Of a stretch of 64,000 bases of DNA, positions 4,335 to 49,856 are shown one piece after another. The stretch covers positions 33-64,032 of the forward strand of contig JAHJQG010000064.1 in assembly GCA_018819345.1 (NCBI GenBank), written 5' to 3'. Under the pieces are notes generated by a model. It did not search any database, was not told the DNA's origin, and saw only the letters and a list, made by a program, of their open reading frames with translations. Each line of letters opens with the position of its first letter. Within the stretch, counting starts at the first letter, position 1. The translations under genes and the position numbers were made by a program. Source of the DNA: Nanobdellota archaeon. GTDB taxonomy: Archaea; Nanobdellota; Nanobdellia; Woesearchaeales; CG1-02-33-12.

Positions 4335-4919
4335 TCAAAAATTTTTATTCCATTCACCAGCTTCTTTTCCTTTTATGACCTTGTCAAGCATCTCCAGCTC
4401 TTCATATATCCCTGCAATTAACTTATACTTTTTTGCTTGTTTAAAAGTTACCCAGGCATATTCTGTCAGTGCAGGACAAAGCTTGACTTTTCCATCAAGA
4501 TAGTCTGCATAAAGGCTTACAATAAGTGTTGGAATCATGTCAGAACGAACATAAGCAAGGCTTGTTAAATACCTAATATTTTTTATTTTTAGCCCAGTCT
4601 CTTCCATTACTTCTCTCTTAAGCAGGTTTTCAAATATATTATACCAATGTGAGGAAGTATCTTTTGGTCTTTTTATATAATCATTAAGTTCTAATTTACC
4701 GCCTGGAACTGTCCACTGGTTTGGAAATGCTTTTTCTGTTGGTGATCTTTTTGTGATTAGAAATTTATTATCTTTTATGATTATCCCTGTTACAACAACA
4801 TAATGTGCCTTATTTTTATCATGCATAAAGTAAACTAAAAATTCTAAATATAAAAGACTTTCTTTTTCCCAAAAGTTATTTAAGTTAGATATTTTCCCTT
4901 TTTTTGATGCACGAGACAA
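4335..4919 (-). CDS. NUDIX hydrolase
   Basis: Nudix box GGKLE...REVMEETGL. Confidence 0.75.
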   Translation of the reverse strand: MSRASKKGKISNLNNFWEKESLLYLEFLVYFMHDKNKAHYVVVTGIIIKDNKFLITKRSPTEKAFPNQWTVPGGKLELNDYIKRPKDTSSHWYNIFENLLKREVMEETGLKIKNIRYLTSLAYVRSDMIPTLIVSLYADYLDGKVKLCPALTEYAWVTFKQAKKYKLIAGIYEELEMLDKVIKGKEAGEWNKNF

Positions 4920-6334
4920 AAAACATTATTAAAGGCGACTTAAAGAAAGTAATTTTGAGGCTTTCCTGGCCTATGATGATTTCAAACCTTCTCCAGGCAA
5001 CTTATAACATAACAGACACATTCTGGGTTGGCAGGCTTGGAAGCTATGCAATTGCAGCAGTGACAATCAGTTTTCCCCTTGTTTTTGTTATGATAGCTAT
5101 TGCAATGGGAATTGGTGTTGGCGGCTCTATACTTATAGCGCATGCAGCAGGAAAGGCATTTAAGACAAAAAAGGAAAAAGACAAAAAACAGATTAACCTT
5201 ATAACCTCGCAGACTTTTGTTCTGCTTTTTTTAGCTGCAGTTGCAGTGTCTTTTATTGGCTTTTTATTTACTCCCAAGATTGTTTCACTGTTAAGTTCTG
5301 AACAGGCTGTTTTTGAAAGCGCAGTTGTTTACATGAGAACAATATTTATAGGCTTTTCATTTATGGTTCTTTATTATGTTTTTGAGGCAGCATTAAGGGC
5401 ACTGGGAAACACAAAAACACCAATGAAATTTGTTTTTATCTCAGTATTAATTAATGTGATCCTTGACCCAATACTTATTTTTGGATTAGGGCCTTTTCCA
5501 AAGATGGGTGTTTTTGGAGCAGCCTTAGCCACTGTAATCTCAAGAGCAATCATAAGCTTAATTGCACTCTATCATTTAATCAAAGGAACTTATGGAATAA
5601 GATTTGAACTTGATTTCCTAAAGCCAAAAATAAAGGTAATAAAGGATATTCTTAAGCTTGGAATCCCAACCACTTTTGAAATGGGATCAATAGCTATAGG
5701 GTCCTTTATGATTACTTACATAGTTGGTGCTTTGGGAACTGCAACATTAGCTGCTTTTGGAATTGTCACGAGATTATTCAGTTTTTTCATGATTCCCTCA
5801 TTAGCAATATCTGTTTCAATATCAACAATAGTTGCCCAGAATTTTGGTGCTGGGAATCTCAAGAGAGCATTTATTTCATTGAAAGAATCTGCAAAATTAG
5901 GATTTAAGATAATAATTGTTATCAGTGTTTTTACCTTTATGTTTTCAAGACAAATAATAAGTGCTTTTACAGTTGATGCAGAAGTTATTTATCTTGGAAC
6001 CATGTTTTTAAGGATTATTTCTCCATTTATAATCCTCGGCTTTGGAAGGCATGTTTTCATAGGGTTCTTCAGGGGAATAAAGCGTACAGATATTTCAATG
6101 GCTGTGAGCATTATCAACCATTTTATATTAAGGATAGGGGGTGCTTATGTGCTTGCTTTTGTTTTTAATTTAAAGGCAGTGGGAATCTGGTGGTCTTATC
6201 CGTCAATGATGTTTTTAAGCCTTATTATTACATACATCATCTATTTGAGGATTAAGAAGAATATCATAAAAAAGAAAGTGGATGTTGAGGGCATAATATT
6301 AAAATCTGAAGCAGAGTCAGAGATTGTTGAATAA
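4904..6334 (+). CDS. MATE-family multidrug efflux transporter
   Basis: About 12 predicted TM helices and a MATE-like repeat organisation. Confidence 0.75.
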   Translation: MMHETKNIIKGDLKKVILRLSWPMMISNLLQATYNITDTFWVGRLGSYAIAAVTISFPLVFVMIAIAMGIGVGGSILIAHAAGKAFKTKKEKDKKQINLITSQTFVLLFLAAVAVSFIGFLFTPKIVSLLSSEQAVFESAVVYMRTIFIGFSFMVLYYVFEAALRALGNTKTPMKFVFISVLINVILDPILIFGLGPFPKMGVFGAALATVISRAIISLIALYHLIKGTYGIRFELDFLKPKIKVIKDILKLGIPTTFEMGSIAIGSFMITYIVGALGTATLAAFGIVTRLFSFFMIPSLAISVSISTIVAQNFGAGNLKRAFISLKESAKLGFKIIIVISVFTFMFSRQIISAFTVDAEVIYLGTMFLRIISPFIILGFGRHVFIGFFRGIKRTDISMAVSIINHFILRIGGAYVLAFVFNLKAVGIWWSYPSMMFLSLIITYIIYLRIKKNIIKKKVDVEGIILKSEAESEIVE

Positions 6335-9351: not shown

Positions 9352-11115
9352 TTGATGCAACTAGCTAATACCATAGGACTTTATGCTTTTCTAAGCCTCA
9401 TACCATTGATAATAATCTACTTAAGAAAACCCAAGCCAGTTGAAAAAGTTATTCCCTCACTTATGTTTCTCATAAAGAATCAGAAAGATACTACAAAACA
9501 CACTTTTTTCCAGAAATTACTGAGAAATCTTGTATTTTTATTGCAGTTATTGGCATTATCACTAATGGCTTTTTCAATTGCCTTACCTTATATAATAACA
9601 TCTGAGGCTGTTACATCACAAAACACTGTTATTATAATTGATGCAAGCGCAAGCTCACAAGCAATCAGCAATGGCAGGACAAGATTTGAAAGCTCAATAG
9701 ATATAGCAAAAGACTATATGCAAGGAAAGATAAGCATAATAGTTGTTTCTGAAAGCCCTGAAACAATTCTAGAGCATGGAACAAAAAACCAGGCATTATC
9801 ATTGCTCCAAACCTTAGAACCAAAGGATACAAAGACAAATATTGAAAGTGCATTGTATGAAGCAGAATCAATACTTGCAGATACCAAGGGAAGAATTATT
9901 GTTATAAGTGATTTTATAGTAGAGGATGTAAATGAATTATTAAAAGCAAAGAGAATATTATCTTCAAAGGACATTGATGTTGAGTTTATAAGTACATGGA
10001 GCAAGGCAACAAACATAGGAATCATTGAACTAGATGTTAATAAGTACAATATGGTAGCATATGTAAAGAATTTCAATGATGATGATGCAGAAATAACAGC
10101 AGCACTTGTTAAGGATGGCAGTGCTTTGGAAACAAAATCAAAAACAATAACAGCCCATTCAACAGAAATATTTAATTTTGAGACACCAACAGGAATTAGC
10201 GAAATTACAATAAATTCAGATGATGATTTCAAGCTTGACAATACTGTTTACATAAGTGCTCCTGAAAAAAAACAGATTGATGTTCTTCTGATAACAAATG
10301 CAAAGACAAGCTATCTTATGAAGGCATTGCAGTCATCAAAAGACATTAATCTTCAGATTGCAGAACCACCAATAGTCCAGGGAATTGAGTCCAGCGAGGT
10401 TATAATAATAAGTGGTATAGATGGAAGCCTTATTCTTCCGGGAACACTTGAGGAAATATCAAGAGAAGTAGAAGATGGAAAAAGCCTAATAATCACAGCA
10501 CAGGATGATTTAAATCAAATAGACGTACTATGGCTTCTGCCTGTTGAATTAAATGAAAAAGCCAATAATACAAAGGCATGTGTCAAGGTGATAAATGAAT
10601 TCACAAATCAGTTTGAGAACAATATGTGTTTTACAATGGTTAAAAAATATTTTAAGGCAATTCCAAAAAATAATACAATATCTATTATTGAAGCAGATGA
10701 TTCAAGCCCATTGGTAGCTTTTGGGAAAAAGGGGAAGGGTAATATAGTTTATTATGGATTAATTGATGAACATGCTGATTTTAAGACTCAAACATCTTAT
10801 CCAATATTCTGGAATGACTTATTAAACTTTCTTGCTGAAACAGGAGATATAAATGACTATAACCTTAAAATAGATGAAAAGCCATCAATAGACAAAGCAG
10901 GAATATATGATAATGGCAATAAGATTGCAGTAAACCTTCTTGATGAACATGAGTCAGACATAGCAAAGGAAACAATAGATTTTGATGAGCAGGGTTTTGT
11001 TTCAGGCATTTCCCAGGAAAATGTTGTTGTAAACCTTGATGTTTATTTAATTATTTTTGCAATTATTATCATGTCTTTTGAGATATTTTATATAAAGATA
11101 AGGGGTGATTTATAA
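9352..11115 (+). CDS. BatA-like membrane protein with a vWA-like domain
   Basis: N-terminal double-TM BatA_N-like segment. A DxSxS-like motif IIIDASASS. Confidence 0.5.
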   Translation: MMQLANTIGLYAFLSLIPLIIIYLRKPKPVEKVIPSLMFLIKNQKDTTKHTFFQKLLRNLVFLLQLLALSLMAFSIALPYIITSEAVTSQNTVIIIDASASSQAISNGRTRFESSIDIAKDYMQGKISIIVVSESPETILEHGTKNQALSLLQTLEPKDTKTNIESALYEAESILADTKGRIIVISDFIVEDVNELLKAKRILSSKDIDVEFISTWSKATNIGIIELDVNKYNMVAYVKNFNDDDAEITAALVKDGSALETKSKTITAHSTEIFNFETPTGISEITINSDDDFKLDNTVYISAPEKKQIDVLLITNAKTSYLMKALQSSKDINLQIAEPPIVQGIESSEVIIISGIDGSLILPGTLEEISREVEDGKSLIITAQDDLNQIDVLWLLPVELNEKANNTKACVKVINEFTNQFENNMCFTMVKKYFKAIPKNNTISIIEADDSSPLVAFGKKGKGNIVYYGLIDEHADFKTQTSYPIFWNDLLNFLAETGDINDYNLKIDEKPSIDKAGIYDNGNKIAVNLLDEHESDIAKETIDFDEQGFVSGISQENVVVNLDVYLIIFAIIIMSFEIFYIKIRGDL

Positions 11116-11141
11116 TCATCTACTTCAAGAATCCAGAAGCA

Positions 11142-13511
11142 TTGTTATTATGCCTGCCTGCAATAATCATATTAATCATCCTTATTAGAAAAACCTTTGT
11201 TAAGTTTGCAACAGAAAAAGAAAAAAAAGAGCATGAAAAGAGCAAAAAACTTTCAAGAATATTAATAGCAATATCAAGATGCCTGATTTTCTCAATTTTA
11301 ATAATAGCACTAGCATCACCATTCAGCCTGGAGGAGAAAACTGTTCAGGGAGATCCTTCATTAACAATACTTGCAGATAACTCAACTTCATTTGAGCTTT
11401 TTGAGCAGGACATTGCCTCTAACTTAAAACTTAATCTTGAAAAGGAGATTCCAACAAGAATAAAATATATTGCACATGGAGAAGAATCACCAATAGGAGA
11501 CAGCCTGCTTAACAACATGAAGGGAAATGATAATCTATTGTTAATTAGCGATGGAAACAATAACAAAGGGACTTCTTTAGGTGATGTAATGATGCTCGCC
11601 TCCTCATTAAACACAACTATCAGCTCATTAAGTATTAATCCAATAAAAACAGACCTTGCTGTGACAATTGACAGCCCTTCTGAACTAATATTTGGAACAG
11701 AAGCCCTGCTGTATGTAGATGTAAAACAGACAGGCCCTTTCTCATTGGATTATGATATTAGGGTAATGATTGATGACACTGTTGTAATAGACGAGAAAGC
11801 AACTGGTACAAAAACATTTGAGATTAAGCAGATGCTGCGGACAGGCTATCATAAAATAAAGGCATCAATAACAGCAAGCGATTATTTCAGGCAAAACAAT
11901 GTTTATTACAAAACAATCCATGTCCTGCCAAAGCCAAAGATACTCTTTATTTCACAAAAAGATGCAAAGATAACAAAAATAATGGATACACTCTACGATG
12001 TTGCCAAAAAGAGCTATATGCCAAAAGACCTTAAGCCATATTCTGCTGTTGTTTTGTATAATATAAATGAAGACTGGCTCAAAACAAATACAGATATTTT
12101 AACTGATTATGTAGCAGATGGTAATGGCCTTGTAGTCATTGGAGGTGATAACTCATTTGATTATGGCAATTATGAAAATTCAATGTTTGAAACCATTCTG
12201 CCTGTTAAGGTAGGCCTTGCTGGAAAAGAAGAGGAAAGCGGAATGAACATTATAATTGTAATGGATGTTTCAGGAACAACATGCTCTGCTTTTAGTAGTG
12301 GAAGCAAAAATACAAAGATAGATGTTGAAAAGGCAGTTGCAACCCAAATAATTGGTGGTTTAAGAGCTGAAGACAATATTGGTGTTGTAACATTTGATTT
12401 TAATTCTCACCTTGTATCTCCTATTTTACCAATAATGGAAAAACCAGATTTAAACTATACAATAGCAACCATACAGTGCGGTGGCTATAGTGCAGGAACA
12501 CTTGTTTCTGCTGGTTTGATAAGAGCAGAGCATATGCTCAGATCTACAAAAGGAAGCAAGAACATTGTTCTGATATCTGATGGAATAACACAATACCCAA
12601 AGGATGCAATTGCAAAGGCAAAATCAATGACGGCTCAGGGAATAAAAACATATGCTGTTGGAGTTGGCTTTGACACTAACAGCCAGTTTATGCAGGATCT
12701 GGCATTAAAGGGCAATGGTATTTATTTTGAGCCAACAGAGGCACAGAGGTTAAATATAATTTTCAGCAGGGAATATGAGGAAGAGGAGACAGATGTAATG
12801 GGTCTCTTAATAATTGACTTAAATCATTTTATAACAAAAAACCTTGATTTAAGCGCAAAGATAACTGGCTTTAACCAGGTTGTTCCAAAAACCTCGGCAA
12901 GGATGCTTATAACAACCCAGAATACGAATCCAATAGTTAGTGTATGGCACTTTGGACTTGGAAGAGTTGCTGCATTAACCACAGATCCAGAAGTATGGGC
13001 AGGCCAGCTCTTAAACAAGGAAAACTCAAAACTTATCACAAGAACAGTCAATTGGGCTATTGGCGACCCAGGCAGAAACAAGGAGTTTGATGTAAAGCTT
13101 AAGGATTCAAGAATTAATGATATTGCCCAGATAAATGTTATTTCACAAACAGAGCCAGTGCTTGAGGGATTTTCATTTTCAAAAATAACTAAAAACCTTT
13201 ACAGGGCAAGTTTTGTTCCAAAGCAAACAGGGTTTTATGATTTTTTTGATGCTTCAATGGCTGTTAATTACAAGAGAGAATATGAGGACTTGGGAATAAA
13301 TCCAGAGCTTATAGACCTTGTAAGCATCACCAACGGAAGAATATTTGACAAGGACAATACAACAGCAATAGTGGAATTTATAAGGGAAAACTCAAGAAGA
13401 AAAAAAATAGATGAAAAAAGTTACACCTGGATTCTTGTTTTAACAGCATTATCTATATTTTTAATAGAGGTCTGTATCAGGAGGATTATGGAAAATAGGA
13501 AATCTATATAA
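11142..13511 (+). CDS. von Willebrand factor A domain membrane protein (BatB-like)
   Basis: N-terminal TM segment and a MIDAS motif IIIVMDVSGTTCS...ISDGI. Confidence 0.6.
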   Translation: MLLCLPAIIILIILIRKTFVKFATEKEKKEHEKSKKLSRILIAISRCLIFSILIIALASPFSLEEKTVQGDPSLTILADNSTSFELFEQDIASNLKLNLEKEIPTRIKYIAHGEESPIGDSLLNNMKGNDNLLLISDGNNNKGTSLGDVMMLASSLNTTISSLSINPIKTDLAVTIDSPSELIFGTEALLYVDVKQTGPFSLDYDIRVMIDDTVVIDEKATGTKTFEIKQMLRTGYHKIKASITASDYFRQNNVYYKTIHVLPKPKILFISQKDAKITKIMDTLYDVAKKSYMPKDLKPYSAVVLYNINEDWLKTNTDILTDYVADGNGLVVIGGDNSFDYGNYENSMFETILPVKVGLAGKEEESGMNIIIVMDVSGTTCSAFSSGSKNTKIDVEKAVATQIIGGLRAEDNIGVVTFDFNSHLVSPILPIMEKPDLNYTIATIQCGGYSAGTLVSAGLIRAEHMLRSTKGSKNIVLISDGITQYPKDAIAKAKSMTAQGIKTYAVGVGFDTNSQFMQDLALKGNGIYFEPTEAQRLNIIFSREYEEEETDVMGLLIIDLNHFITKNLDLSAKITGFNQVVPKTSARMLITTQNTNPIVSVWHFGLGRVAALTTDPEVWAGQLLNKENSKLITRTVNWAIGDPGRNKEFDVKLKDSRINDIAQINVISQTEPVLEGFSFSKITKNLYRASFVPKQTGFYDFFDASMAVNYKREYEDLGINPELIDLVSITNGRIFDKDNTTAIVEFIRENSRRKKIDEKSYTWILVLTALSIFLIEVCIRRIMENRKSI

Positions 13512-26724: not shown

Positions 26725-27129
26725 ATGGAAGAAAATATGTCTTATATTGCAAGTATATCACTTAGATTTGGAGGGGAGAGTATAATTAAAGATGTAACCA
26801 AAAAATTGAATAAAACACCCAATTTAACAATTGAGCAATTGATAAATTCCCTAATAAAAGATGAAGGGAATTTTAATGAAGAAGAAAAAGAGATAATGAA
26901 TTATATTAAGTTTGATATGCAAAGACGCAAAGAATCAGGATGGCATAGATTTAGATTAGGTGTAAAAGCATTAAATGAGTCTGGTGAATATAGGACTTTT
27001 CCAACCAATGATGGCGATAATATTACAAAAATAAACCGTACAGAAATAGCAAAAAACTACTTTGAACCAAGAAAAATTGAGGGTACGAGTTATAAAGGAT
27101 TGGATTTGGAGGTCTATGCAAGAGGATGA
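26725..27129 (+). CDS. small cysteine-free protein, paralogue A (ends ...LDLEVYARG)
   Basis: Aligns along its whole length with 29284..29724 (PNLTI, LIKDxGF, EEKEIM, LNExG, IAKxYFEP, GLxLEV). A GAGGT ribosome-binding site lies 8 nt upstream. Confidence 0.6.
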   Translation: MEENMSYIASISLRFGGESIIKDVTKKLNKTPNLTIEQLINSLIKDEGNFNEEEKEIMNYIKFDMQRRKESGWHRFRLGVKALNESGEYRTFPTNDGDNITKINRTEIAKNYFEPRKIEGTSYKGLDLEVYARG

Positions 27130-29725: not shown

Positions 29726-30970
29726 ATGAAACTGCCAAAATCTAGCTTTAGCAGCATTGCTGAAGAAGCTAAACTTTGCCTTATCTTAAATAATAGACTT
29801 TATACAGTTGAAGTAAGAGAAGAAAAAGGCAATAATTTTTTTTATTTTGCTAATAAAAAGTATTTATTGCAAGAGTCAGAAAGTCTTAAATCTATTGAAA
29901 GAATATACTTAAAAAACAATGAAATTGAATTTAAGTCAATTATTAATAACATATCAAAAAAAAGTTTAAAAGAAGATAACAACTTATTAAAAAAGGATAT
30001 ATTTGAATTACAAAAAAAATATGAACTCCTTGATTTTATAGTTAACAAAGTTTTTCCTCTCTATTCTAAAAACAAGAATAACATAAAATTGAAATCTAAA
30101 AACCAAAAACCAAATCAAAAATTAGAAGAAATTTTAAAACCAAAGATTGATAAACACAGGACTGAGAATCTTAAAGACGGCTTTGAATGCCTATTAAACA
30201 GGGATTATTCTATACTTGAAAAGAACATAATAAAAAATATTAATCTGCTTATATTTAATAGGAATATTTATATTACAAAAAAAATTCCAGAAAAAATTTA
30301 CAAAACAATAAGAAACAGATTTAGGATTAATAATATAAATTACTCATATAAATTCACTGGTTATTTAAAGGATTTAGAGAAAGAATACCTTAAAAATTTA
30401 TCAGATGAAATAACAAAATTTTCAAATCATAGTGGAAATCTTTTAAATGAAAAAATAAATTTGTTAAACAAAAAAAATAATTTTTCTGAGATAGTAAAAA
30501 AACAAATATACCAAGAAGGCCGCATTGGTTTTATTAAAAAAGGGCAAGACCATTATATTTTCCTTGAGCAAGAACCATTTGCTCTTAAATCAATTGATCA
30601 GTCTGATTATTATGTGTTTGAAAAATGTAAGGTTGGTGTTAAATTAAAATTAAATAATCATAAAATAGAACTTGAGTCACCTGTTGTAATTAATAAGTAT
30701 TCTCATCCCTTGCTTTCTGGCTTTGATATGCCAGAACAATATATTTGTACTGGAAACGGCATAAGTAGCAATGTGATAAATGATTTTAATGAAAAAAAAG
30801 ATTATGCTGGAATAGCATACTATCTTCTTAAAGTGGGAGGATTTGCTTTGAGGAACGGGTATTGTCCTGGAATGAATCCCCATCATCATCTAAATAGAAA
30901 CACCTTTTGTAATAATCTTACAACCCTTCAAGAAATAAACAAAAGAGGAGTTGTTGTTGAAAAACAGTGA
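29726..30970 (+). CDS. hypothetical protein; the C-terminal region carries HPLLSGFDMPEQYICTGNG
   Basis: ORF of 414 aa. An HP...C spacing is reminiscent of E2/UBC active sites, but this is weak. Confidence 0.35.
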   Translation: MKLPKSSFSSIAEEAKLCLILNNRLYTVEVREEKGNNFFYFANKKYLLQESESLKSIERIYLKNNEIEFKSIINNISKKSLKEDNNLLKKDIFELQKKYELLDFIVNKVFPLYSKNKNNIKLKSKNQKPNQKLEEILKPKIDKHRTENLKDGFECLLNRDYSILEKNIIKNINLLIFNRNIYITKKIPEKIYKTIRNRFRINNINYSYKFTGYLKDLEKEYLKNLSDEITKFSNHSGNLLNEKINLLNKKNNFSEIVKKQIYQEGRIGFIKKGQDHYIFLEQEPFALKSIDQSDYYVFEKCKVGVKLKLNNHKIELESPVVINKYSHPLLSGFDMPEQYICTGNGISSNVINDFNEKKDYAGIAYYLLKVGGFALRNGYCPGMNPHHHLNRNTFCNNLTTLQEINKRGVVVEKQ

Positions 30971-31829
30971 TAATATGAAAAAATTAGAATATATACTTGA
31001 AAATAATTCAAAAGAAAAAATAGATGAATTGTTTAGTGATTTAAAGATTACTGATTATGCTTATAAAAAAATAAAAGCATATGCTTCTCTAGCCTGCATA
31101 ACTGCTAATGCATCAATTGAATGTGGTGGTTATTTAGTAGCTCTTAAAGAGGATCAGGATTATATTGTAAAGGATGTGTATTTGTCAAAAGATCAAAAAG
31201 TAACAGGCGTAGAATATATCGTTGATTCAGAGCCAGATATGGATTTTCTAAAAGAAATCAAGAATGATGGATATAAAGTAATGGGGTGGTGGCATAGTCA
31301 TGGAAGTATGAATCCTTTTCACTCTGGAACTGATGATGATACATTCAAGAGCATTTATTATAATATTTTTCCGTATAATAAAAAGGAATCAAGTAGAGAA
31401 ATAATTCCTCTTTCAGGAGATTCATTTAAAATTGAGCATCAAACTGATAAAACAGGAAATAATTATGTATTTTTTAAATCAAATAATTTTCTTGAAGATG
31501 TAATTGAGATGAAGGTAGGTAATAATTTTAAATTAAATGATATTGAAGTCAAAGAAATTAAAATAAAAAAATTCAGAGGTATTTCATTTGCATATAGTCT
31601 AGTTGTGAATCGTTTTTATTCTGCAGCACCTTATGCCGAAGTAGCTATCAAACACCCTAAGACTAAGGAAATTAAAATTAACAAGGGGGTTAAAGTAACG
31701 GAAATAATCTCCAATCCAATGTCCTTAGATTATGAGAAAATATTAGATGAAATAAAAACAAGAATCATCTACAAAGGAAAATTTTTGGGGGAAATAACAA
31801 ACAAATATGCAGAATCTGGGGTGATCTAA
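30951..31829 (+). CDS. JAB/MPN (JAMM) metalloprotease, paralogue 1
   Basis: The upstream Glu is in IECGGYLVA. The JAMM motif HSHGSMNPFHSGTD matches H-x-H-x7-S-x2-D exactly. The ORF ends at TAA 31827-31829. Confidence 0.75.
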   Translation: MLLKNSDNMKKLEYILENNSKEKIDELFSDLKITDYAYKKIKAYASLACITANASIECGGYLVALKEDQDYIVKDVYLSKDQKVTGVEYIVDSEPDMDFLKEIKNDGYKVMGWWHSHGSMNPFHSGTDDDTFKSIYYNIFPYNKKESSREIIPLSGDSFKIEHQTDKTGNNYVFFKSNNFLEDVIEMKVGNNFKLNDIEVKEIKIKKFRGISFAYSLVVNRFYSAAPYAEVAIKHPKTKEIKINKGVKVTEIISNPMSLDYEKILDEIKTRIIYKGKFLGEITNKYAESGVI

Positions 31830-32084
31830 ATTCCAGAGATAACAGATACACAAGAAAGAATAGAAGGATGGAATCAAAAAAAACTTGATGATTCTTTAGT
31901 AACAATAATTGGGGCTGGACCATTATCCAATTTTGTTTTATCAAATCTTGTTGGTCTGCAAGTTGGAAATATAAGGATAATTAATAATGAAGATTATACT
32001 AATAATTCTAATGAATTCTTATTTTTTGATTATTATAACAAAAAAGAAAAAGTTAGGAAAGTTAAGCATCTTGAAAAAATAATT

Positions 32085-33338
32085 ATGCAAATGAATCCCA
32101 AAATAAGAGTTGGCGGATATTATTCTCCTCTTTTTTATGATTTAGTTGGCAAACCAAATATACTTATTGATCTTACAAATGACCCATGTTCAAAATTTAA
32201 GAGCATAAAGATTTCGGATAAATTGAAAATACCTTTTATTACTGCTTCTACAAGCAAGAATAAGGGCAAGGTGATGGTTTACACCCCTATGAGCAAGACA
32301 GAAAGAATAATTCTTTCTAAAAAGAACTATACGCAAAGCATAGATGAATATTTATTTCCTGATTTTGAAAATTGCCAACAGGGCAATATAACAAGCGGTC
32401 TGATTGCTGGATTAGTAACAGAGGAAATAAGAAAATCTGTAATTAAATTATATGATTATGATAAATTGATGAAAAAAGGAGTAACATACAACCTCCTGTC
32501 TAATAGGCGGTTCAAAGATGAATGTGAGATAACTCTTGGTATATCTGATTATCTGAATGAAAAAAACCTGTTTAAGAATAAAAAAGTTGCAATAATTGGT
32601 GCAGGTTCAATAGGAAATTTTGTTGGACTTGGTTTATCCCTAATGAATTTTGATAAGATATACTTAATTGATATGGATAAAATTGAGGAGAATAATAAGA
32701 ATAGGCAGATTCTTTACACTCTTGGGAATTATGTTGGTGAAAAAAAAGTTGAAATATTGTCTAGATTAATGAATAAAATAAATCCAACTACTCAATCTAT
32801 AGGAATTTATGGAAAATTAGGAAATAATCTTAATAAAGAAGAAAAAAGAAAACAAGTTAAATTAATTAATGAATCAGAATTTCTTAAGCTTGATTGTGAT
32901 TTGATTTTGGGTTGTCTTGATAATATTTCTGCAAGAGCATTTGCTAATAGGTTGGCTGTAAAAAACTCTATTCCTTACATAGATGGAGGAACTAGTCCTT
33001 TCTCTGGACAGGTAAGAGTCTATAGTCCTGGAAAAACAGCATGTTTAGATTGTCAGGAGAACATTTATTCTCAGGCAATTGAAGAGCAAAATAAAGAAGA
33101 AATTTCTGACCATTGTACTGCAAATGATCACGAGCCAAGTGTCGTCATGTCAAACCAGATAATTGGCGCAGCAATTCTGGGTGAGATAAGAACACTATTT
33201 TATCCGGAAGTTTATGGACAACCAGTGATGAATGGCATGCTATACAACTCTTTTGATCGAGATAGGCTTGTTTTGAATAAGATCAAATGTAAACCAAATA
33301 AAGATTGTCTTTGCAGTAAAAAATTTTATAATAAATAA
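32085..33338 (+). CDS. ThiF/MoeB/E1-like adenylyltransferase; the N-terminus may extend upstream to 31830
   Basis: KVAIIGAGSIGNFVGLGL...IYLIDMDKIEENNKNRQ (GxGxxG, D.D, NRQ), then a CLDC...C cluster. The 85 in-frame codons upstream at 31830-32084 have no canonical start and encode IIGAGPLSNFV...IRIIN. Confidence 0.7.
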   Translation: MQMNPKIRVGGYYSPLFYDLVGKPNILIDLTNDPCSKFKSIKISDKLKIPFITASTSKNKGKVMVYTPMSKTERIILSKKNYTQSIDEYLFPDFENCQQGNITSGLIAGLVTEEIRKSVIKLYDYDKLMKKGVTYNLLSNRRFKDECEITLGISDYLNEKNLFKNKKVAIIGAGSIGNFVGLGLSLMNFDKIYLIDMDKIEENNKNRQILYTLGNYVGEKKVEILSRLMNKINPTTQSIGIYGKLGNNLNKEEKRKQVKLINESEFLKLDCDLILGCLDNISARAFANRLAVKNSIPYIDGGTSPFSGQVRVYSPGKTACLDCQENIYSQAIEEQNKEEISDHCTANDHEPSVVMSNQIIGAAILGEIRTLFYPEVYGQPVMNGMLYNSFDRDRLVLNKIKCKPNKDCLCSKKFYNK

Positions 33339-36320: not shown

Positions 36321-36374
36321 AGGTGAATTAAGATCAAAAAAGAAGATGAAAATCAATTTAACTCAGAGAAAAGT

Positions 36375-37877
36375 TTGGAAGAAAGAGTCAAATCAATAGT
36401 GAGCACTATAAAACCTGATTTTAAAAGGATCTCTGATGTAATTGAGGACAATGTAATCTTAAATTATTTTATTGATAACTTAAAAAAAGAAGTAACTCAA
36501 AGAGATATCAATTTTGCAGACTTAAGGAATATTATTTCATGTGACTATTACCTTAGATTTAACAAAAAAGACAAGAAAGAAATTATCCAATTGTTGAATA
36601 AACAGGATTCAAATGCATTAATTGATTATTGTACATTGGGTTTAATCAAAAAAGAAAAGCGCAGATACAATAAAAAACCAAGTGTGTCCAATCCCTTTTT
36701 AAAGTATTGTAATGATATGAATGTTGAAATTCTTTCTACATCTTATATAGGCTTATTAAAGAACAATGAAATAAAAAGCCTAATAAAACAATCTCATGAT
36801 ATAAAAGACTTAAAGGCAATAATTTTTATGGATGTTCTGATGCCAATGCTTGATAAAGCTCATTTAGAGAAAATAATTAATTCTGAACTGAATCCTGAAC
36901 AAAAAGCACTTGAATTTGCAAAGGAGTATCAGATTTGCAAAGACATGAAAAGAATCAAAGAAATATTTCTTAATTTAAATGAAGAAATAAAACATTTAGA
37001 GGGAGATTTTTTTAGATTAACTGGAAAGTCAGGTTTAGAGGAACTCCAAGCACTTGTTAATATAAGAAATAAGATAATCAGACACAAGGAAAAATACAAT
37101 AATCCTGAGCAGTACATAACAAATGCTCAATTATTGACAAAAGATATTCTTAATAATGATAATTCTTTAAATCATATGATAGAAGAAGGCATTGACAAAT
37201 CAAATTGCGTAAAGAAAGAGGTTGAAATCAATATAAAAAAGGAAATTGATGTCAGCTATTCAGAATATAAAAAAATAAATGATGACTTGTCTGAAGGAAG
37301 CTTTGAGTCATATTTATACAAAGATAAATTAAAAGAAAAAGAAAAAAATCTAAATAAAATAATTGAAGTGTTTGATTTTGCTGGTGATGAAAGGTTAGAT
37401 GAAGTATGGATGCTGAAAAAAACAGTTGAATCAAAAATAAAAACATTTGAGGATATAATTTATGAAAGATACCAGATAAATTCATACATCAAAAAGGTAA
37501 ATCAGCATAATAGTGTTCTTGAGGCAGCATTTCAGGATCAGGTTTTTGAAGAAGACATTTCTCTTTTGTGTGATGTAAAAAAGATTATTTCAACTAACTT
37601 AGAGTCATCTGTTTATCCTGAAAACAAAGCTATTCTTGAAGAATATAAATCACATTTACAGCAATTAAAAGAGTTATTTGATAAAAAAGTAATTAATGGT
37701 ATAAAAATAATAAATAAAAGTAGTTTTGATATGGAAGAAAAACATAATCTAAATGATAACAGCAAAAAAGGTTATCTTGGTTCTTTTGTAAGAAAGAAAA
37801 AATTTGAATCTGCTAAAAAGGAGTTATCAGAATATCGTAACCAGTTTAATAAAATTAAAGAATTAATCCAAACATAA
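36375..37877 (+). CDS. hypothetical coiled-coil protein
   Basis: ORF of 500 aa; heptad-rich. Confidence 0.35.
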   Translation: MEERVKSIVSTIKPDFKRISDVIEDNVILNYFIDNLKKEVTQRDINFADLRNIISCDYYLRFNKKDKKEIIQLLNKQDSNALIDYCTLGLIKKEKRRYNKKPSVSNPFLKYCNDMNVEILSTSYIGLLKNNEIKSLIKQSHDIKDLKAIIFMDVLMPMLDKAHLEKIINSELNPEQKALEFAKEYQICKDMKRIKEIFLNLNEEIKHLEGDFFRLTGKSGLEELQALVNIRNKIIRHKEKYNNPEQYITNAQLLTKDILNNDNSLNHMIEEGIDKSNCVKKEVEINIKKEIDVSYSEYKKINDDLSEGSFESYLYKDKLKEKEKNLNKIIEVFDFAGDERLDEVWMLKKTVESKIKTFEDIIYERYQINSYIKKVNQHNSVLEAAFQDQVFEEDISLLCDVKKIISTNLESSVYPENKAILEEYKSHLQQLKELFDKKVINGIKIINKSSFDMEEKHNLNDNSKKGYLGSFVRKKKFESAKKELSEYRNQFNKIKELIQT

Positions 37878-43516: not shown

Positions 43517-44398
43517 TCACCTTGTTTGTGTTATATAAACAAAATCAAGATTTTTCTTAAAGTAAGGATTTTTTGTTAAACTATTATATATGTTTTCTGC
43601 AACAGCTTTCTCTTCGGTTATCCCAAAAACAGTTGGTCCAGAGCCAGACATCAGTGCATTTAATGCACCATTTTGTATCATTTTTTTCTTAATTTCATTA
43701 ATAATTGGATGTTCTTTACAAATAGAATATTCAAAATCATTATGCATATTCTCTGCAATTTTATTAATATCCTCTTCTTTTATTGCATTAAGCATCTCAG
43801 CTGTTTTTAGCTGTTTGCCTGTTTTTTCATAATCAATATTATTATAAGCATCTTCTGTTGAAATATTAAAATTTGGTTTTGCTAAAACAACATAAAACTC
43901 TGGAATTTTTTCTATTTTCTGCAATTCATTACCCATACCTGTTGCATATGCTGTCCCGCCAAATAAGCAAAAAGCAACATCCATGCCAATATTATTGGAT
44001 ATTTCAATTAATTCCTTTTCTGACAAATTTAGATTAAAGAGTTTATTCATACCTTTTAATGTTGCAGCAGCATCTGAACTTCCTCCTCCAAGGCCAGCTA
44101 CAACAGGAATCCTTTTCTCAATAGTTATTTCAACACCTTCTTTTATTCCATAATTCTCAATCAGAATATTTGCTGCTTTGTAAGCAAGGTTTTCATTATC
44201 TGGACAAATATTAATATTGCACTTAAGTTTTATGCCCTTTTCTATTTTCTTTAGTTTAATTATATCATGCAGCTCAAGTTCCTGTATAACAGATTCTATT
44301 TTATGATATCCAGAAGCAAGCCTCTTAATGATATCCAAGGAGAGGTTTATTTTAGAGTATGCTTTTTGGATTAGTTCCATTATATTAACACCTAACAA
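43517..44398 (-). CDS. ispE: 4-diphosphocytidyl-2-C-methyl-D-erythritol kinase IspE (GHMP kinase)
   Basis: GHMP motif PVVAGLGGGSSDAAA. Confidence 0.8.
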   Translation of the reverse strand: MLGVNIMELIQKAYSKINLSLDIIKRLASGYHKIESVIQELELHDIIKLKKIEKGIKLKCNINICPDNENLAYKAANILIENYGIKEGVEITIEKRIPVVAGLGGGSSDAAATLKGMNKLFNLNLSEKELIEISNNIGMDVAFCLFGGTAYATGMGNELQKIEKIPEFYVVLAKPNFNISTEDAYNNIDYEKTGKQLKTAEMLNAIKEEDINKIAENMHNDFEYSICKEHPIINEIKKKMIQNGALNALMSGSGPTVFGITEEKAVAENIYNSLTKNPYFKKNLDFVYITQTR

Positions 44399-44876
44399 CA
44401 GTTGCTATTGCAAATGCTTGTATTCCCATGCCTCTGCCAAAGGCAGTAAGGCCCTCGCCAGAAGTTGCTGTTATACCAATCATGTCCTGTGTTATCATTA
44501 ATATCCTTGCTATGCTCTTTTTCATATCATCAACATATGGCTCAATTCTTGGTTTTTTCGCCTCAATCATCACACCAATATTATTTATCCTATAACCGCT
44601 CTCTTTGACCATCTTCAATGCCAGTTTTAGGTATTCTCTGCTGTCTTTAATTCCTTCTCTGCACATCTTATCAGAATAAACCCCTATTGATCTTTTACCA
44701 ACAGCCTGGCTTAGGGCATTGAAGATAGCATGCAGCACAACATCACCATCAGATTTTGCCTTTAAGCCCTTTTCATTAGGGATTATTACACCACCAAGAA
44801 CAAGCCTTTTTTCACCTTTTCTTATAAATCTATGAGAATCCTGGCCAATACCAACCCTAATCATAATAATCACCAT
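44385..44876 (-). CDS. ispF: 2-C-methyl-D-erythritol 2,4-cyclodiphosphate synthase IspF
   Basis: RVGIGQDSHRF and DGDVVLHA motifs. Confidence 0.85.
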   Translation of the reverse strand: MVIIMIRVGIGQDSHRFIRKGEKRLVLGGVIIPNEKGLKAKSDGDVVLHAIFNALSQAVGKRSIGVYSDKMCREGIKDSREYLKLALKMVKESGYRINNIGVMIEAKKPRIEPYVDDMKKSIARILMITQDMIGITATSGEGLTAFGRGMGIQAFAIATVVRC

Positions 44877-45555
44877 TATTTTTTTTAAATATATGCTTTG
44901 CTATTACCAAATCATCTGGTGTTGTTATCTTTAAATTTTCATAATGTCCCCTGCATATCCTAATTTTATAACCTAATCTTTCAACTAATGAAGAATCATC
45001 TTTTCCAAAAAAACCATCTCTTTTTGCTGTTTCATGCGCCTTTTTAATAATATCTGCCTTGAATGTTTGCGGGGTTTGGGCAATCCATAATGCATCTCTG
45101 TCAAGGGTGTTTTGAACAAAACAATTATCAACCTTTTTTACAGTTTCCTTTAGAGGCACTGCAACAACAGAGGCTCCATAATTTATGGCATCCCTGATTG
45201 AGTTTGTTATAGAATCTTCTGTTACAAGCGGCCTTGCCCCATCATGGATAAGAATAATATCAGAATCTGCTTCCATAACACCGTTGTATGATGACTGCTG
45301 CCTTGTTTCGCCCCCAACAATTATTTTCCTGAGTTTTTTAAAGATATTTTTTTCAATAATCTTGTTGCAAGCTTCTAAATCCCTTTTGTTTACAACAACT
45401 ATTATCTCATTGATTAGCTTGTGGTTTTCAAATGCCCCTATTGTATGTATTAAAATTGGTTTTCGCAGCTCTAAAAAGAGTTTATTTTTATCAGCCATCA
45501 TTCTTTTTGCTTTTCCTGCTGCTAGTATTATTGCTGTTGTTTTCATACAATCCAC
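44857..45555 (-). CDS. ispD: 2-C-methyl-D-erythritol 4-phosphate cytidylyltransferase IspD
   Basis: AIILAAGKAKRM P-loop-like motif and a typical length. Confidence 0.8.
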   Translation of the reverse strand: MDCMKTTAIILAAGKAKRMMADKNKLFLELRKPILIHTIGAFENHKLINEIIVVVNKRDLEACNKIIEKNIFKKLRKIIVGGETRQQSSYNGVMEADSDIILIHDGARPLVTEDSITNSIRDAINYGASVVAVPLKETVKKVDNCFVQNTLDRDALWIAQTPQTFKADIIKKAHETAKRDGFFGKDDSSLVERLGYKIRICRGHYENLKITTPDDLVIAKHIFKKNNGDYYD

Positions 45556-46596
45556 CTATAGTTTATTTATTTCATCTAATAATGCTTTAAGAATCTTATC
45601 TTTCTTTACCTTCTTAACAACATTTCCCTTTCTGAAGATTATTCCAAAGTTTTTTGCACCAGCAACACCAACATCTGCCTCTCTTGCTTCTCCTGGCCCA
45701 TTGACAGCACAACCCATAACAGCTATCTTAATTGGTTTTCTTATGTGTGCTGTTGCCTTTTCAACACTTTTTGTTAATCCAATTAAATCTATTTCTGTTC
45801 TGCCGCAGCTAGGGCATGAAATTATTGTTCTCTGCTTTCTTAAGCCAAGGCTGTTTAGTATTTCAAAGCCTGCTTTTACTTCCTCTAATGGATTTGATGT
45901 CAGTGAAACCCTTATTGTGTCACCAATGCCATCTAATAATAATGATCCAATCCCTATTGATGATTTTATTGTTCCGCTATAAGCAGTTCCTGCCTCTGTA
46001 ATTCCAATATGAAAAGGATAATCAACTTTACTGGCCATCATCCTGTAAGCATCAACAGTTCTTTTAATGTCAGAGGCTTTCATTGAAATAATTGTGTTGT
46101 AGAAGTCAAGCTCTTCAAGGATTTTTATATGTTTTAGAGCAGAATTAACCATTGCTTTTGAGGTTAGGCCAAATTTTTCAATAATCTCTTTCTCTAAAGA
46201 GCCAAGGTTTACGCCAATCCTTATTGGGATATGATAATCCTTTGCTTGCTCTACAACCAATTTAACTTTATCATTAGAACCAATATTCCCGGGATTTATC
46301 CTTAGCTTGTCAGCATATTTTGCTGATTCCAATGCAAGCCTGTAATCAAAGTGTATGTCTGCAACCAATGGTATGCTTATATTCTCCTTTATTTTCTTCA
46401 ATGATTTTGCTTCATTCATATCTGTAACAGAAACCCTTATTATCTCGCATCCAGCTTCTTCTAGCTCATGAATCTGCCTTACTGTTGCATCTATATCTCT
46501 TGTGTGTGTAGTACACATTGACTGGACAGTAATTGGAGCATTGCCGCCAATCTTTAGTTTTCCTACCTTTACACCTCTTGTTTTTCTTCTCTTCAT
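45556..46596 (-). CDS. ispG: HMBPP synthase IspG/GcpE
   Basis: GcpE TIM-barrel motifs IGGNAPITVQSM and the C-terminal CPSCGR Fe-S motif. Confidence 0.85.
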   Translation of the reverse strand: MKRRKTRGVKVGKLKIGGNAPITVQSMCTTHTRDIDATVRQIHELEEAGCEIIRVSVTDMNEAKSLKKIKENISIPLVADIHFDYRLALESAKYADKLRINPGNIGSNDKVKLVVEQAKDYHIPIRIGVNLGSLEKEIIEKFGLTSKAMVNSALKHIKILEELDFYNTIISMKASDIKRTVDAYRMMASKVDYPFHIGITEAGTAYSGTIKSSIGIGSLLLDGIGDTIRVSLTSNPLEEVKAGFEILNSLGLRKQRTIISCPSCGRTEIDLIGLTKSVEKATAHIRKPIKIAVMGCAVNGPGEAREADVGVAGAKNFGIIFRKGNVVKKVKKDKILKALLDEINKL

Positions 46597-46597
46597 T

Positions 46598-47656
46598 TTA
46601 GTAATCTCTTTTGATTATGTAATCTGCTATTTTCAGAAAGAAATCCTTTCCATGTTTTTCAAAATCAGAATTTTTTATTACATTTTTTGCTTTTTTCACT
46701 AATTTTTCTGCAAGGTGTTGTGAATAATCCAGAGAACTTGTTTGTTTTACTATTTCCCTTATCTTCATCATTTCTTCTTTGGTTATATTTTTATTTCCCA
46801 AGGCATTTCTTATAAACTCTTTTTGTTCCTTATCTGAATTTTCTATTGTCTTTAAAATGAGAAGTGTTTTTTTGCCCTCTTTTATATCAGAGTCAGCAGG
46901 TTTTCCTAACTTAACTTCTGATCCAAACATTCCTAAGATATCATCCTTTATCTGGAATGCCTGCCCTAATGGAATTGCATAATTTGTTAGTGTTTTTAGC
47001 TGCTCATCTGATGCTCCTGCAGCTATTGCACCCATGTGCAAAGGCCCTTCTATTGTATAGATAGCTGTTTTTAATTTGTGCATTTTTGATATATCCTCTT
47101 CTGTCACATCAGTTCTTAGGCTGGAAAAAACATCAACTATCTCACCATAGCAAGTTAGCTTTACAACCTTATTGAACTTTTGCAATAGCTTTATCTTTTT
47201 TTCTTCATCAAAATCTGATTTAAATATTATTTCATTTCCAAGGGATGCCAGAATATCACCTGCTATTATTGCCATGCTTTCCCCAAATTTCTTTGGATTA
47301 TCATAGCTCTTGTATTTTTTTGCATATATTCTATGCATGGTTGGGCCACCCCTTCTTAATTCATCATCATCAATTATGTCATCATGAATTAGGAGGAATG
47401 AATTCATTAACTCTGCTGACACAGCAATATCAATTATTGCATTTTCATTTTTTCCTCCAAGAGATTTATAGGCCATTATGATTAATATTGACCTTATTCT
47501 TTTTCCTCCCCTAAGGTTAAACTCCTTTATGTACTGCATTATTTCTCTTGAAGAATTAGATATTTTTTCTGCTTCAGCAATTTTTTCATCAAGGAAATTT
47601 CTCAGCCTAAGTTCTATTTTTTCTTTATATAACTTTAATATCTTGTCTATAGCCAT
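46598..47656 (-). CDS. idsA: polyprenyl (geranylgeranyl/farnesyl) diphosphate synthase
   Basis: FARM LIHDDIIDDDELRRG and SARM DDILG. The start is trimmed to the internal Met to avoid overlap with the AMMECR1 gene. Confidence 0.8.
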   Translation of the reverse strand: MAIDKILKLYKEKIELRLRNFLDEKIAEAEKISNSSREIMQYIKEFNLRGGKRIRSILIIMAYKSLGGKNENAIIDIAVSAELMNSFLLIHDDIIDDDELRRGGPTMHRIYAKKYKSYDNPKKFGESMAIIAGDILASLGNEIIFKSDFDEEKKIKLLQKFNKVVKLTCYGEIVDVFSSLRTDVTEEDISKMHKLKTAIYTIEGPLHMGAIAAGASDEQLKTLTNYAIPLGQAFQIKDDILGMFGSEVKLGKPADSDIKEGKKTLLILKTIENSDKEQKEFIRNALGNKNITKEEMMKIREIVKQTSSLDYSQHLAEKLVKKAKNVIKNSDFEKHGKDFFLKIADYIIKRDY

Positions 47657-47672
47657 TTTAATCTTGAGAAGT

Positions 47673-48224
47673 TTATTCTTTAAATATCTGTGCCTGAAAT
47701 TTGTAAATCTGGTTGTTTGTATTTTTCCACGCATCCTGCTTTAGCCAGGCCTTTTCGCACAAATGCCCAAGAAATTCCTTAACATCCCACTTGTATTCTG
47801 TTGCAACCTGCGGAAGTAAAAGCCCAGAACCAAGGCTTGACCTTATTATAAGACCATCCTTTCCAATCTTTATCTTCTTAAAGTAATCTTCAGGTTTTTT
47901 TACCTCAATTAATGTTGGAACAGTAAGAACAGATATCTCAATTCTTATATCCTTTAACTCCTCTTTCTGCAATGGTGGAAATCTTGGATCCTCAAAAGCA
48001 GCTGACCTTGCTGATTTTATTATTGCTTCAAATAAGGGAAATACAGGCTCTGGGAAGCCAATACAGCCCCTTAATTGCTTATTTTTATATAAAGTTACAA
48101 ACACCCCCTGCCTGTCAGAAAAATGTTTTACAGTGCTTATATTAGGCTCATTTTGTAAGAAATATGAAGAAATAGATTCTCTTGCCAGTTTTATCAATAA
48201 TTTGCCATCTGATGGCTTAATCAT
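47673..48224 (-). CDS. AMMECR1-domain protein
   Basis: LRGCIG motif. Confidence 0.75.
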   Translation of the reverse strand: MIKPSDGKLLIKLARESISSYFLQNEPNISTVKHFSDRQGVFVTLYKNKQLRGCIGFPEPVFPLFEAIIKSARSAAFEDPRFPPLQKEELKDIRIEISVLTVPTLIEVKKPEDYFKKIKIGKDGLIIRSSLGSGLLLPQVATEYKWDVKEFLGHLCEKAWLKQDAWKNTNNQIYKFQAQIFKE

Positions 48225-49174: not shown

Positions 49175-49280
49175 AACCTACCACTTTTTATGGTTTAGTA
49201 GCAAAGGTTTATATTTGTTTTCAAAATTTGTTATTTTTAGAAAAGTTTTTAAGTAAGCTAGAAAACATAGTTAATCCGGG

Positions 49281-49856
49281 GTGATATGGATTAAGTTTAG
49301 TTTATTCAATGGAAAAAAGAGTAATGGTTCCAAAGAACTTCTTACAATTAATAAAAAGCTTAAAAATGCCTTCAATACAATAAAAGAGGAATTTGAGGAG
49401 CATTTAGGTTCTATTAATGAAAATACTAGCGAGATTCAGGCTAATTATGAGTATTTATGCAATATTGATTCAAAAATTGATAAACTGAATGAAAAAATAG
49501 ATGATTTACAGCTTTTTATAAATCGCCTTGCTGTAAAGGATTATAAAAAACATAATGAAAAACAGGTTTATAACCATATTCTCCTTACAACAAAGGAGAA
49601 GGAAGTATTCCTTGCACTTTACACAATGGCTGAGGAAAAAGGGCCAATAACATATAAGGCTATTTCAAGAAGGATTGGCCTAACAGAATTTATGGTTAGA
49701 GATTATGTAACAAACCTCATAGAGAAAGGGATTCCAATTATAAAGAAATATGTTAATCAGGAAGTTTATCTTGATATTGACCAAAAGTTTAGGCATATGC
49801 AGGCAAAGGAAAATTTAGTTGAGATTAATGAGAGTATGGCTAAGAGGTTTGTTTAA
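49281..49856 (+). CDS. coiled-coil protein with a C-terminal winged-HTH
   Basis: LTTKEKEVFLALYTM...ITYKAISRRIGLTEFMVRDYVTNLIEKG is wHTH-like. Confidence 0.4.
   Translation: MIWIKFSLFNGKKSNGSKELLTINKKLKNAFNTIKEEFEEHLGSINENTSEIQANYEYLCNIDSKIDKLNEKIDDLQLFINRLAVKDYKKHNEKQVYNHILLTTKEKEVFLALYTMAEEKGPITYKAISRRIGLTEFMVRDYVTNLIEKGIPIIKKYVNQEVYLDIDQKFRHMQAKENLVEINESMAKRFV

Follow-up and report, generated by a model that had tools for sequence, protein, structure and literature searches.

The locus

Contig JAHJQG010000064.1 comes from a Nanobdellota archaeon of the Woesearchaeales; the stretch analysed here (positions 33 to 64,032, 64,000 nucleotides in all, called the window below) carries a gene for an E1-like enzyme, referred to as E1. 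It lies in a tightly packed, co-directional cluster, in which a candidate ubiquitin-like protein (Ubl) and a candidate E2 are followed by the JAMM peptidase JAB1, by E1 and by a 761-residue protein with a second JAB domain, JAB2 (Table 1). The question taken up here is where E1 begins. Automatic calls place its start at the codon for Met86, well inside what proves to be a longer gene, and it is argued below that translation probably begins at an ATT codon abutting the JAB1 stop.

The 85 codons between JAB1 and Met86

As the original prediction had observed, the open reading frame (ORF) of JAB1 and the ORF at 32085-33338 share a frame, in which the lone stop between them is the TAA at 31827-31829; the intervening codons, 31830-32084 (85 of them), are open and hold no ATG, GTG or TTG, the first such codon in frame being codon 86, ATG 32085. 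At the local base composition (~28% GC), 85 codons would stay open by chance with a probability of ~2e-4, and open runs of that length make up 0.7% of the non-coding-frame runs within the operon. The suggestion that a degenerate ThiF repeat is encoded here also stood up to profile searches: the 85-residue peptide on its own matches Pfam ThiF (E=6.6e-5, profile positions 14-77), at a score of 22.6 bits that lies below the gathering cut-off of 28.1 bits, and in the translated long form of 502 residues Pfam finds two ThiF stretches. The canonical GxGxxG that had been placed at residue 172 of the 417-residue ORF occupies residues 257-262 of this 502-residue form.

These upstream codons are, on comparative evidence, under purifying selection. 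Across five close relatives, the ratio of nonsynonymous to synonymous substitution rates (dN/dS) is 0.14-0.50, with dN the same as in the rest of the gene; the 85 codons are ~60% identical among proteins that are 56-61% identical overall; and the region stays open across sequences 40-60% divergent. Homologues 42-61% identical to the window protein (P0003, P0006, P0008 and P0010), and remoter ones, include this N-terminal region in one continuous protein of 470-530 residues. An exhaustive profile-free search at E<=1e-30 gave 179 cluster representatives, nearly all of 450-530 residues; about 150 representatives of the family align from query residues 3-17, near their own N-termini. A Shine-Dalgarno (SD) sequence was looked for before ATG 32085, and none was found.

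The junction in related loci

The orthologous junction between JAB and E1 was compared at 20 loci. The subclade of the window supplies seven distinct sequences, with 89-95% protein identity to the window, and all of them read ...GGGTGAT(C/T)TAA-ATT CCA GAG.... In the sister subclade (L007, L010/L015, L009 and L008; 56-60% identity) the E1 frame reads GTG-NNN-TAA-ATT, with GAA for TAA in L008, and JAB is in another frame, overlapping E1 by 20 nucleotides past the ATT and ending in ...FGGINFRKNR. Taking the two together, ATT stands at the proposed start codon in all 11 distinct JAB-containing loci, and TAA lies directly upstream of it in 10 of the 11 (the exception being L008). No ATG, GTG or TTG occurs before codon 37-86 in the JAB-containing loci; between the stop and the TD(R/T)QER motif, the ATT is the sole near-cognate codon common to all 11 distinct sequences.

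More distant loci extend the comparison. At L025 (42% identity) the junction is AGGTGGT-CAAA-ATA, and a JAMM protein of 477 residues (4599-6032) overlaps E1 by 32 nucleotides. At L004-L006 and L024 (61% identity) JAB1 is absent and E1 directly follows the E2-like gene; here an ATG, at 6025 in L004, aligns 1:1 with the ATT of the window (AAGGTGTTGAA-ATG) with GGTG at the same distance, and the N-terminus in L004 and L024 reads MTERTNRQE..., as against I(P/S)ERTD(T/R)QE... elsewhere. The alignment of these loci fixes the E1 start at this codon, a putative near-cognate AUH (AUU, AUC or AUA) in every lineage with JAB upstream.

The public record has it otherwise. Six public E1 calls (P0001, P0002, P0004, P0005, P0007 and P0009) are N-terminally short, with lengths of 417, 467, 461, 466 and 362 residues, P0001 and P0002 having been called at 417 residues from Met86; two more, P0006 and P0010 (from L008 and L025), are called from a GTG inside the SD motif.

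The ribosome-binding site

The ATT is preceded by an extended SD, with the spacing GGGGTGATC-N3 or, for the hexamer within it, GGTGAT-N4, so that the SD lies four nucleotides upstream. GGGGTGATC is predicted to pair with the canonical 16S 3' end through nine contiguous pairs, one of them G-U. Ordinary genes of the window have SDs of such geometry: GGTGAT-TATT-ATG at 44864, GGTGGA-TTGT-ATG at 45546, GGTGAA-ATT-ATG at 43512 and GGTGAT-TAT-GTG at 59905. The P. abyssi aEF1A mRNA, which serves as a model of a strong SD site, has equal geometry, GGAGGUGAU-UUAA-AUG (PMC6237735). The N4 spacer puts the GTG of GGTGAT in frame with the start, which accounts both for the conservation of an in-frame GTG-NNN-TAA and for the choice of that GTG by gene callers in L008 and L025. 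The ATT of E1 has the marks of an AUU gene: it stands at the position of an orthologous AUG, there is no other start, and a ribosome-binding site lies at a functional distance.

Two further features of this segment may be recorded. The codons for the conserved C-terminal (F/L)GG of JAB are also the SD of E1. An 8-bp hairpin (31815-31822 with 31830-31837; UCUGGGGU / AUUCCAGA) would tie up the ATT and the codons after it with the 5' half of the SD, and is weaker in relatives.

Architecture of the E1 protein

E1 belongs to the ThiF/E1 adenylyltransferase superfamily, PF00899. That it joins an inactive and an active adenylation domain (IAD and AAD) in tandem, as eukaryotic E1 does, had been proposed from motifs, and is now supported by Pfam, by the predicted structure and by structure matches. 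The AlphaFold2 model of the 502-residue protein, built from a 22-sequence alignment, has a predicted local distance difference test score (pLDDT) of 89.5 and a predicted template modeling score of 0.92. In residues 1-85 (pLDDT 76-98) the model has two strands (23-27 and 47-52), which are strands 1-2 of the Rossmann sheet of the IAD, and three helices (31-43, 63-68 and 77-88), the first of that domain; Met86 falls near the end of helix 77-88, beyond these two strands. Because residues 1-85 supply strands 1-2 of the model, a protein begun at Met86 would be expected to lose the core of the IAD sheet. The top fifty Foldseek matches are full-length Uba1, UBA6 and UBA7.

The IAD carries a degenerate GAGPLS (31911-31928) and is without the Asp and the D...NxNRQ motif. 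The AAD matches Pfam ThiF over residues 249-487, and PDB sequence matches to UBA3, SAE2 and MccB cover residues 246-415; it has the GxGxxG (32598-32615), D281, N289/N291/R292/Q293, K306 and D364, and the zinc cysteines C405/C408/C493/C495. In the 22-sequence alignment G257, G259, G262, D281, N289, R292, K306 and D364 are invariant; N291 and Q293 are invariant in a 20-sequence alignment, and their conservation in the larger one is at least 90%. The invariant catalytic columns of the alignments are confined to the C-terminal domain. E1 is in this sense pseudo-dimeric: one chain holds two adenylation folds, the N-terminal one catalytically dead.

Cys429 (33114-33116), the putative catalytic cysteine, does not vary in the alignments. 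The model sets it in an insertion (412-433) that is helical and of low confidence, with the CxxC before it and the last AAD helices after it. At the N-terminus, the Arg column of the TDRQ motif corresponds to the arginine through which the IAD completes the ATP site in BilD (Arg9) and in NAE1; at least 90% of relatives have R here, and the window and its closest relatives have T7 (31848-31850), their motif reading TDTQER. The basic residues at positions 4 and 10 vary among E1 sequences; R10 or R4 might substitute for the missing Arg at position 7.

The start of translation

The extent of the E1 gene, its fold, its conservation and the geometry of its SD are established. The most probable way to understand them, with a probability of about 0.8 on comparative and SD-geometric grounds, is that translation of E1 begins at the ATT directly after the JAB1 stop. 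The extended SD in the last JAB1 codons would position the 30S subunit; ribosomes ending JAB1 at the TAA could re-initiate at the adjacent ATT (termination-reinitiation); the initiator tRNA would read AUU with a third-position mismatch; and, AUU being a poor start, the output of E1 would be below that of JAB1 and would depend on translation of the JAB1 mRNA. We infer initiation at AUU, coupling to JAB1 and a low ratio of E1 to JAB. A start of this sort, a near-cognate AUU with SD and coupling, is of a known kind; it is the host that is unusual. The weakness of the start may be purposeful, keeping E1 output sparing and tied to the translation of JAB1. The frame that JAB1 and E1 share in the window is incidental, since JAB lies in another frame in the sister clade and is absent in L004-L006 and L024.

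Several considerations weigh against initiation at AUU. It is undocumented in archaea: reviews list AUG, GUG and UUG only, and place archaeal non-canonical events in elongation and termination only. In Sulfolobus, aIF1 rejects AUU in vitro; in E. coli, the efficiency of AUU is ~0.3% of that of AUG. The anti-SD is assumed, since the 16S 3' end lies outside the window. The invariance of ATT, as against ATA or ATC, is uninformative, as two nearby Ile codons, 11 and 26, vary just as little. Finally, the in-frame GTG within the SD of L008 and L025 has no stop after it, and could be the start there.

Three routes to the N-terminal part of E1 had been offered by the original prediction: readthrough from JAB1, non-canonical initiation, and the splitting of one gene by an error or a recent nonsense mutation. 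The second of these is the one left, and the others fall away, as the frames differ, none of ~190 relatives is fused and the junction recurs. Programmed readthrough of the TAA would yield a JAB1-E1 fusion of ~787 residues, analogous to BubCD, a bacterial JAB-E1 fusion that does exist (PMC11601596; PDB 9ea5), and it could make use of the one frame that the two genes occupy in the window and its close relatives; we think it very improbable. The JAB frame differs in L007, L008, L009, L010/L015 and L025, and JAB1 is missing from L004. A search of the orthologous loci for a fused product, or for a sense codon at the stop, found none fused, and, among the 11 distinct loci with JAB and ATT, a sense codon (GAA) at the TAA position in L008 only, where JAB is in another frame; nor does a fusion occur among ~190 relatives, the longest of which (P0012, P0081, P0100, P0143, P0191 and others) contain only ThiF domains. 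Of the 76 long open frames of the window 44 end in TAA, its main stop, with all three stops in use, and the sole tRNA within the 64 kb is Leu-CAG, which is no suppressor; an altered code or a suppressor tRNA was rejected on these same grounds. Shuffled sequences fold as well as the RNA of 31790-31930 does (z = -0.70); readthrough in archaea is documented, according to a review, only for UGA and UAG in selenocysteine and pyrrolysine decoding; and the E1 of BubCD is a homodimer without an IAD, unlike the E1 of the window. For an error of sequencing or assembly, for a nonsense mutation of recent date or for a changed genetic code, nothing speaks but the in-frame stop itself; the same TAA-ATT junction is present in more than 12 independent assemblies (JGI, ENA, NCBI and Logan), whose sequences are 6-40% apart at other positions, which leaves these explanations a negligible share. 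For the sister clade, a -1 frameshift at the slippery-looking heptamer A-AAT-TTC (of the L007 type) was considered and rejected: the -1 frame (AAA TTT CAG AAA GAA CAG ATA GGC AGG AAA GAA TAG) is not the E1 frame, and it ends after 12 codons.

A different non-canonical start near 31830 is unlikely on the evidence. It might be the ATA at 31839, or the GTG at 31821, which would open a mini-ORF (GTG ATC TAA) before re-initiation at the ATT; GTG-NNN-TAA-ATT is indeed in frame in all JAB-containing loci, and the gene callers' preference at L008 and L025 points the same way. Yet the GTG is in frame by the N4 geometry, as it is at the ordinary genes at 45546 and 44864, and no SD lies upstream of GTG 31821; for the ATA, codon 4 is AGA or AGG in most relatives. 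Under either variant, moreover, the ribosome still reaches the ATT, or the product is the same protein minus 3 residues. One could also suppose that E1 is the 417-residue product from ATG 32085, where the automatic calls in close relatives (P0001 and P0002) begin, and that the 85 codons, left over from a formerly longer gene, are no longer translated. The low dN/dS of those codons and the persistence of the open frame across such divergent sequences make this highly doubtful, as do the missing SD and the position of Met86 in the model, inside a helix that follows two IAD strands.

Other AUH start candidates in the window

The AUU start proposed for E1 may have company. Every long open frame of the window was scanned at its 5' edge for GGTG[AG][TA]-N3-5 followed by an in-frame start-like codon; the scan returned 5 canonical starts and 4 AUH codons (ATC 11115, ATT 31830, ATC 36333 and ATT 49290). 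From internal 10-codon windows, 0.15 AUH sites would be expected, against the 4 observed (Poisson P ~2e-5), and the combination of SD with ATT or ATC would by this measure mark start sites in the genome.

The three other candidates differ in detail. The BatA/VWA gene, called from TTG 11142, has AAGGGGTGAT-TT-ATA-ATC-ATC upstream (11102-11144), directly after an in-frame TGA; its homologues begin 5-18 residues upstream of TTG 11142, and Pfam BatA starts at residue 5 of the translation from ATA 11112. It is likely, judging from these alignments, to be a second case of an AUH start (ATC or ATA). In the 500-residue gene that follows the transglutaminase-like gene (36321-36377), the first canonical start, a TTG, comes 14 codons after AAAGGTGAATTAAG-ATC; AAAGGTG(A/G)ATTAAG-ATC recurs in L001 (10240-10300) and L009 (9350-9410), and L004 (9800-9860) has GGTGTT-AAAA-ATT, with CTG at the position of the window's TTG. 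This gene is a candidate for an ATC or ATT start within the E1 operon. The ORF of 188 residues at 49278-49856, with weak helix-turn-helix (HTH) matches, has CCGGGGTGAT-ATGG-ATT, an SD-N4-ATT as at E1, and its sole canonical alternative is a GTG inside the SD.

The pattern suggests that AUH starts behind strong SDs are regular in these genomes. A wider proposal, which we regard as possible and somewhat doubtful, is that Woesearchaeales-like DPANN may routinely start at AUU, AUC or AUA placed 3-5 nucleotides behind an SD of the GGTGAT type, with relaxed or differently tuned start selection and possibly an altered aIF1; the near-cognate start of E1, ATT in the window and sister clades and ATA in L025, would then have been kept between sequences only ~42% identical, as a throttle that binds a low level of E1 to the translation of JAB.

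The gene cluster

Table 1. Features of the E1 cluster, in window coordinates
Feature	Coordinates	Strand	Basis
Candidate Ubl, 146 aa	29284..29724	+	operon position and orthologue alignment
Candidate E2, 414 aa	29726..30970	+	motif and operon position only
JAB1 (JAMM) peptidase gene, 284 aa	30975..31829	+	Prok-JAB match and JAMM motif
E1 Shine-Dalgarno GGGGTGATC, within the last JAB1 codons	31818..31826	+	read in the sequence
JAB1 stop, TAA	31827..31829	+	
Proposed E1 start, ATT (AUU)	31830..31832	+	invariant among 11 distinct JAB-containing loci
Full-length E1 gene, 502 codons and TAA	31830..33338	+	
Inactive adenylation domain (IAD), ~residues 1-225	31830..32504	+	ThiF stretch, alignments, predicted structure
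ATG of Met86, start in ORF finder and public calls, internal to IAD	32085..32087	+	
Active adenylation domain (AAD), residues 246-502	32565..33335	+	Pfam ThiF E=1.6e-50, invariant columns
JAB2-containing multidomain protein, 761 aa	33341..35626	+	weak Pfam Prok-JAB and HTH matches

The JAB1 ORF is open from TTG 30951 (30951-31829, frame 0); its start is likely ATG 30975, which has GTGAT upstream at a spacing of 3 and agrees with the 284-residue call in L001. The protein matches Pfam Prok-JAB (E=7e-10) and has an intact HSHx7Sx2D motif at residue 107. In the JAB2 protein the JAMM motif is at residue 127, and the N-terminal part is paralogous to JAB1. Beyond it the cluster continues with a transglutaminase-like protein and then two large proteins.

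The Ubl candidate ends in ...LEVHFMRKAG followed by a 9-residue tail, SRLDYILSK; Pfam, PADLOC and PDB sequence profile searches gave it no match. A small paralogue at 26725-27129, ~45% identical to it, ends in ...LEVYARG and has no tail; by their termini, the two look like a pair of Ubls in mature and precursor form, though searches gave no family or PDB match for them. The E2 candidate has an invariant motif, H327-P328 ... Q338-x-I340-C341, in orthologue alignments. Family and PDB profile searches gave it no match; it has just 7 homologues in the protein database, and its AlphaFold2 model (pLDDT 36.8) is unusable. PADLOC recognizes the cluster through its generic E1-E2 (AAD only) and JAB models only, with nothing for the Ubl and E2 candidates.

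The closest relatives of the E1 locus were deposited as metagenome-assembled genomes (MAGs) of Nanoarchaeota and Candidatus Woesearchaeota. The window also encodes an archaeal Cbf5 (DKCLD-TruB-PUA), an archaeal LonB and a prolyl-tRNA synthetase of archaeal/eukaryotic type. Three close relatives of the locus, L012, L013 and L014, were deposited as 'uncultured Methanosarcinales archaeon' MAGs; these titles are probably a taxonomic mislabel or a result of bin contamination. On the minus strand, at 43517-47734, GcpE/IspG, a GHMP-kinase (IspE-like) gene and a polyprenyl synthase are grouped. Genes of the methylerythritol phosphate pathway are unusual for an archaeon, the mevalonate route being normal.

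Implications

Every public call found for E1 in the JAB-containing relatives is probably wrong at the N-terminus. Domain surveys therefore see a lone ThiF, and overlook a tandem E1, BilD-like and eukaryote-like, in a DPANN operon with JAB and a candidate Ubl and E2; such an enzyme bears on the debate over the origin of the canonical E1 architecture. If the AUU and AUC starts proposed here are real, Archaea would gain in them their first near-cognate initiation sites with good support, and a test of aIF1-dependent fidelity in reduced genomes. Were AUH starts routine in these archaea, gene callers would systematically shorten their proteins. Start prediction that is anchored on the SD and allows ATT and ATC would annotate these MAGs better.

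Relation to known systems

The classic AUU-initiated gene of bacteria is infC, which encodes IF3. E1, with its proposed start, is like it in having AUU behind a functional SD, conserved among orthologues, so that initiation is expected to be weak and to respond to the fidelity of initiation factors; it differs in that E1 is unlinked to translation and has no evident autoregulatory logic, its start abuts or overlaps an upstream gene, and the host is an archaeon. The junction also resembles sites of termination-reinitiation in archaea and bacteria, with a distance of 0 nucleotides between TAA and ATT, short enough for coupling, and an SD in the last 15 nucleotides of JAB1 (PMC6728339, PMC10666635). 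Typical coupled pairs are ATGA or TGATG overlaps with canonical starts, unlike the TAA-ATT of E1, and the overlap in the sister clade (-20 nucleotides) should couple less efficiently.

As in BubCD, the sequences for a JAB peptidase and for the adenylation domain of an E1 follow each other at this locus; BubCD is also the precedent for the fusion reading. BubCD is a true JAB-E1 fusion that dimerizes through its single adenylation domain and has no catalytic Cys (PMC11601596), whereas JAB1 and E1 of the window are separate genes and E1 has its own IAD. Compared with the eukaryotic E1s (Uba1, UBA6 and UBA7; NAE1-UBA3 and SAE1-SAE2), the window E1 is without FCCH, SCCH and UFD, and is about half the size.

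The single-chain IAD-AAD layout is not new for prokaryotes, as BilD, the E1 of the BilABCD operons (PDB 8TYZ), has an IAD-AAD-CYS layout in bacteria (Chambers et al., 10.1101/2023.09.26.559546); these operons, also called bacterial ISG15-like, are systems of antiviral ubiquitination. The gene order Ubl-E2-JAB-E1 is the same in BilABCD and in the window, where the Ubl and the E2 are candidates only. The two E1s are 12% identical; the IAD of BilD is recognized by PF14459 (Prok-E2_C), whereas that of the window E1 is still ThiF, with no PF14459 match at E<=1; and the Cys-bearing insertion is of ~30 residues, as against ~80 in BilD. The operon of the window differs further from Bil in its second JAB protein, its transglutaminase-like protein, its large coiled-coil proteins and its DPANN host. 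The window E1 would, by analogy, work like BilD, and more distantly like the eukaryotic E1s, while falling outside the BilD family. Databases know its family as 'ThiF family adenylyltransferase' only; we would describe it as a family of archaeal single-chain IAD-AAD E1s that has had no label of its own.

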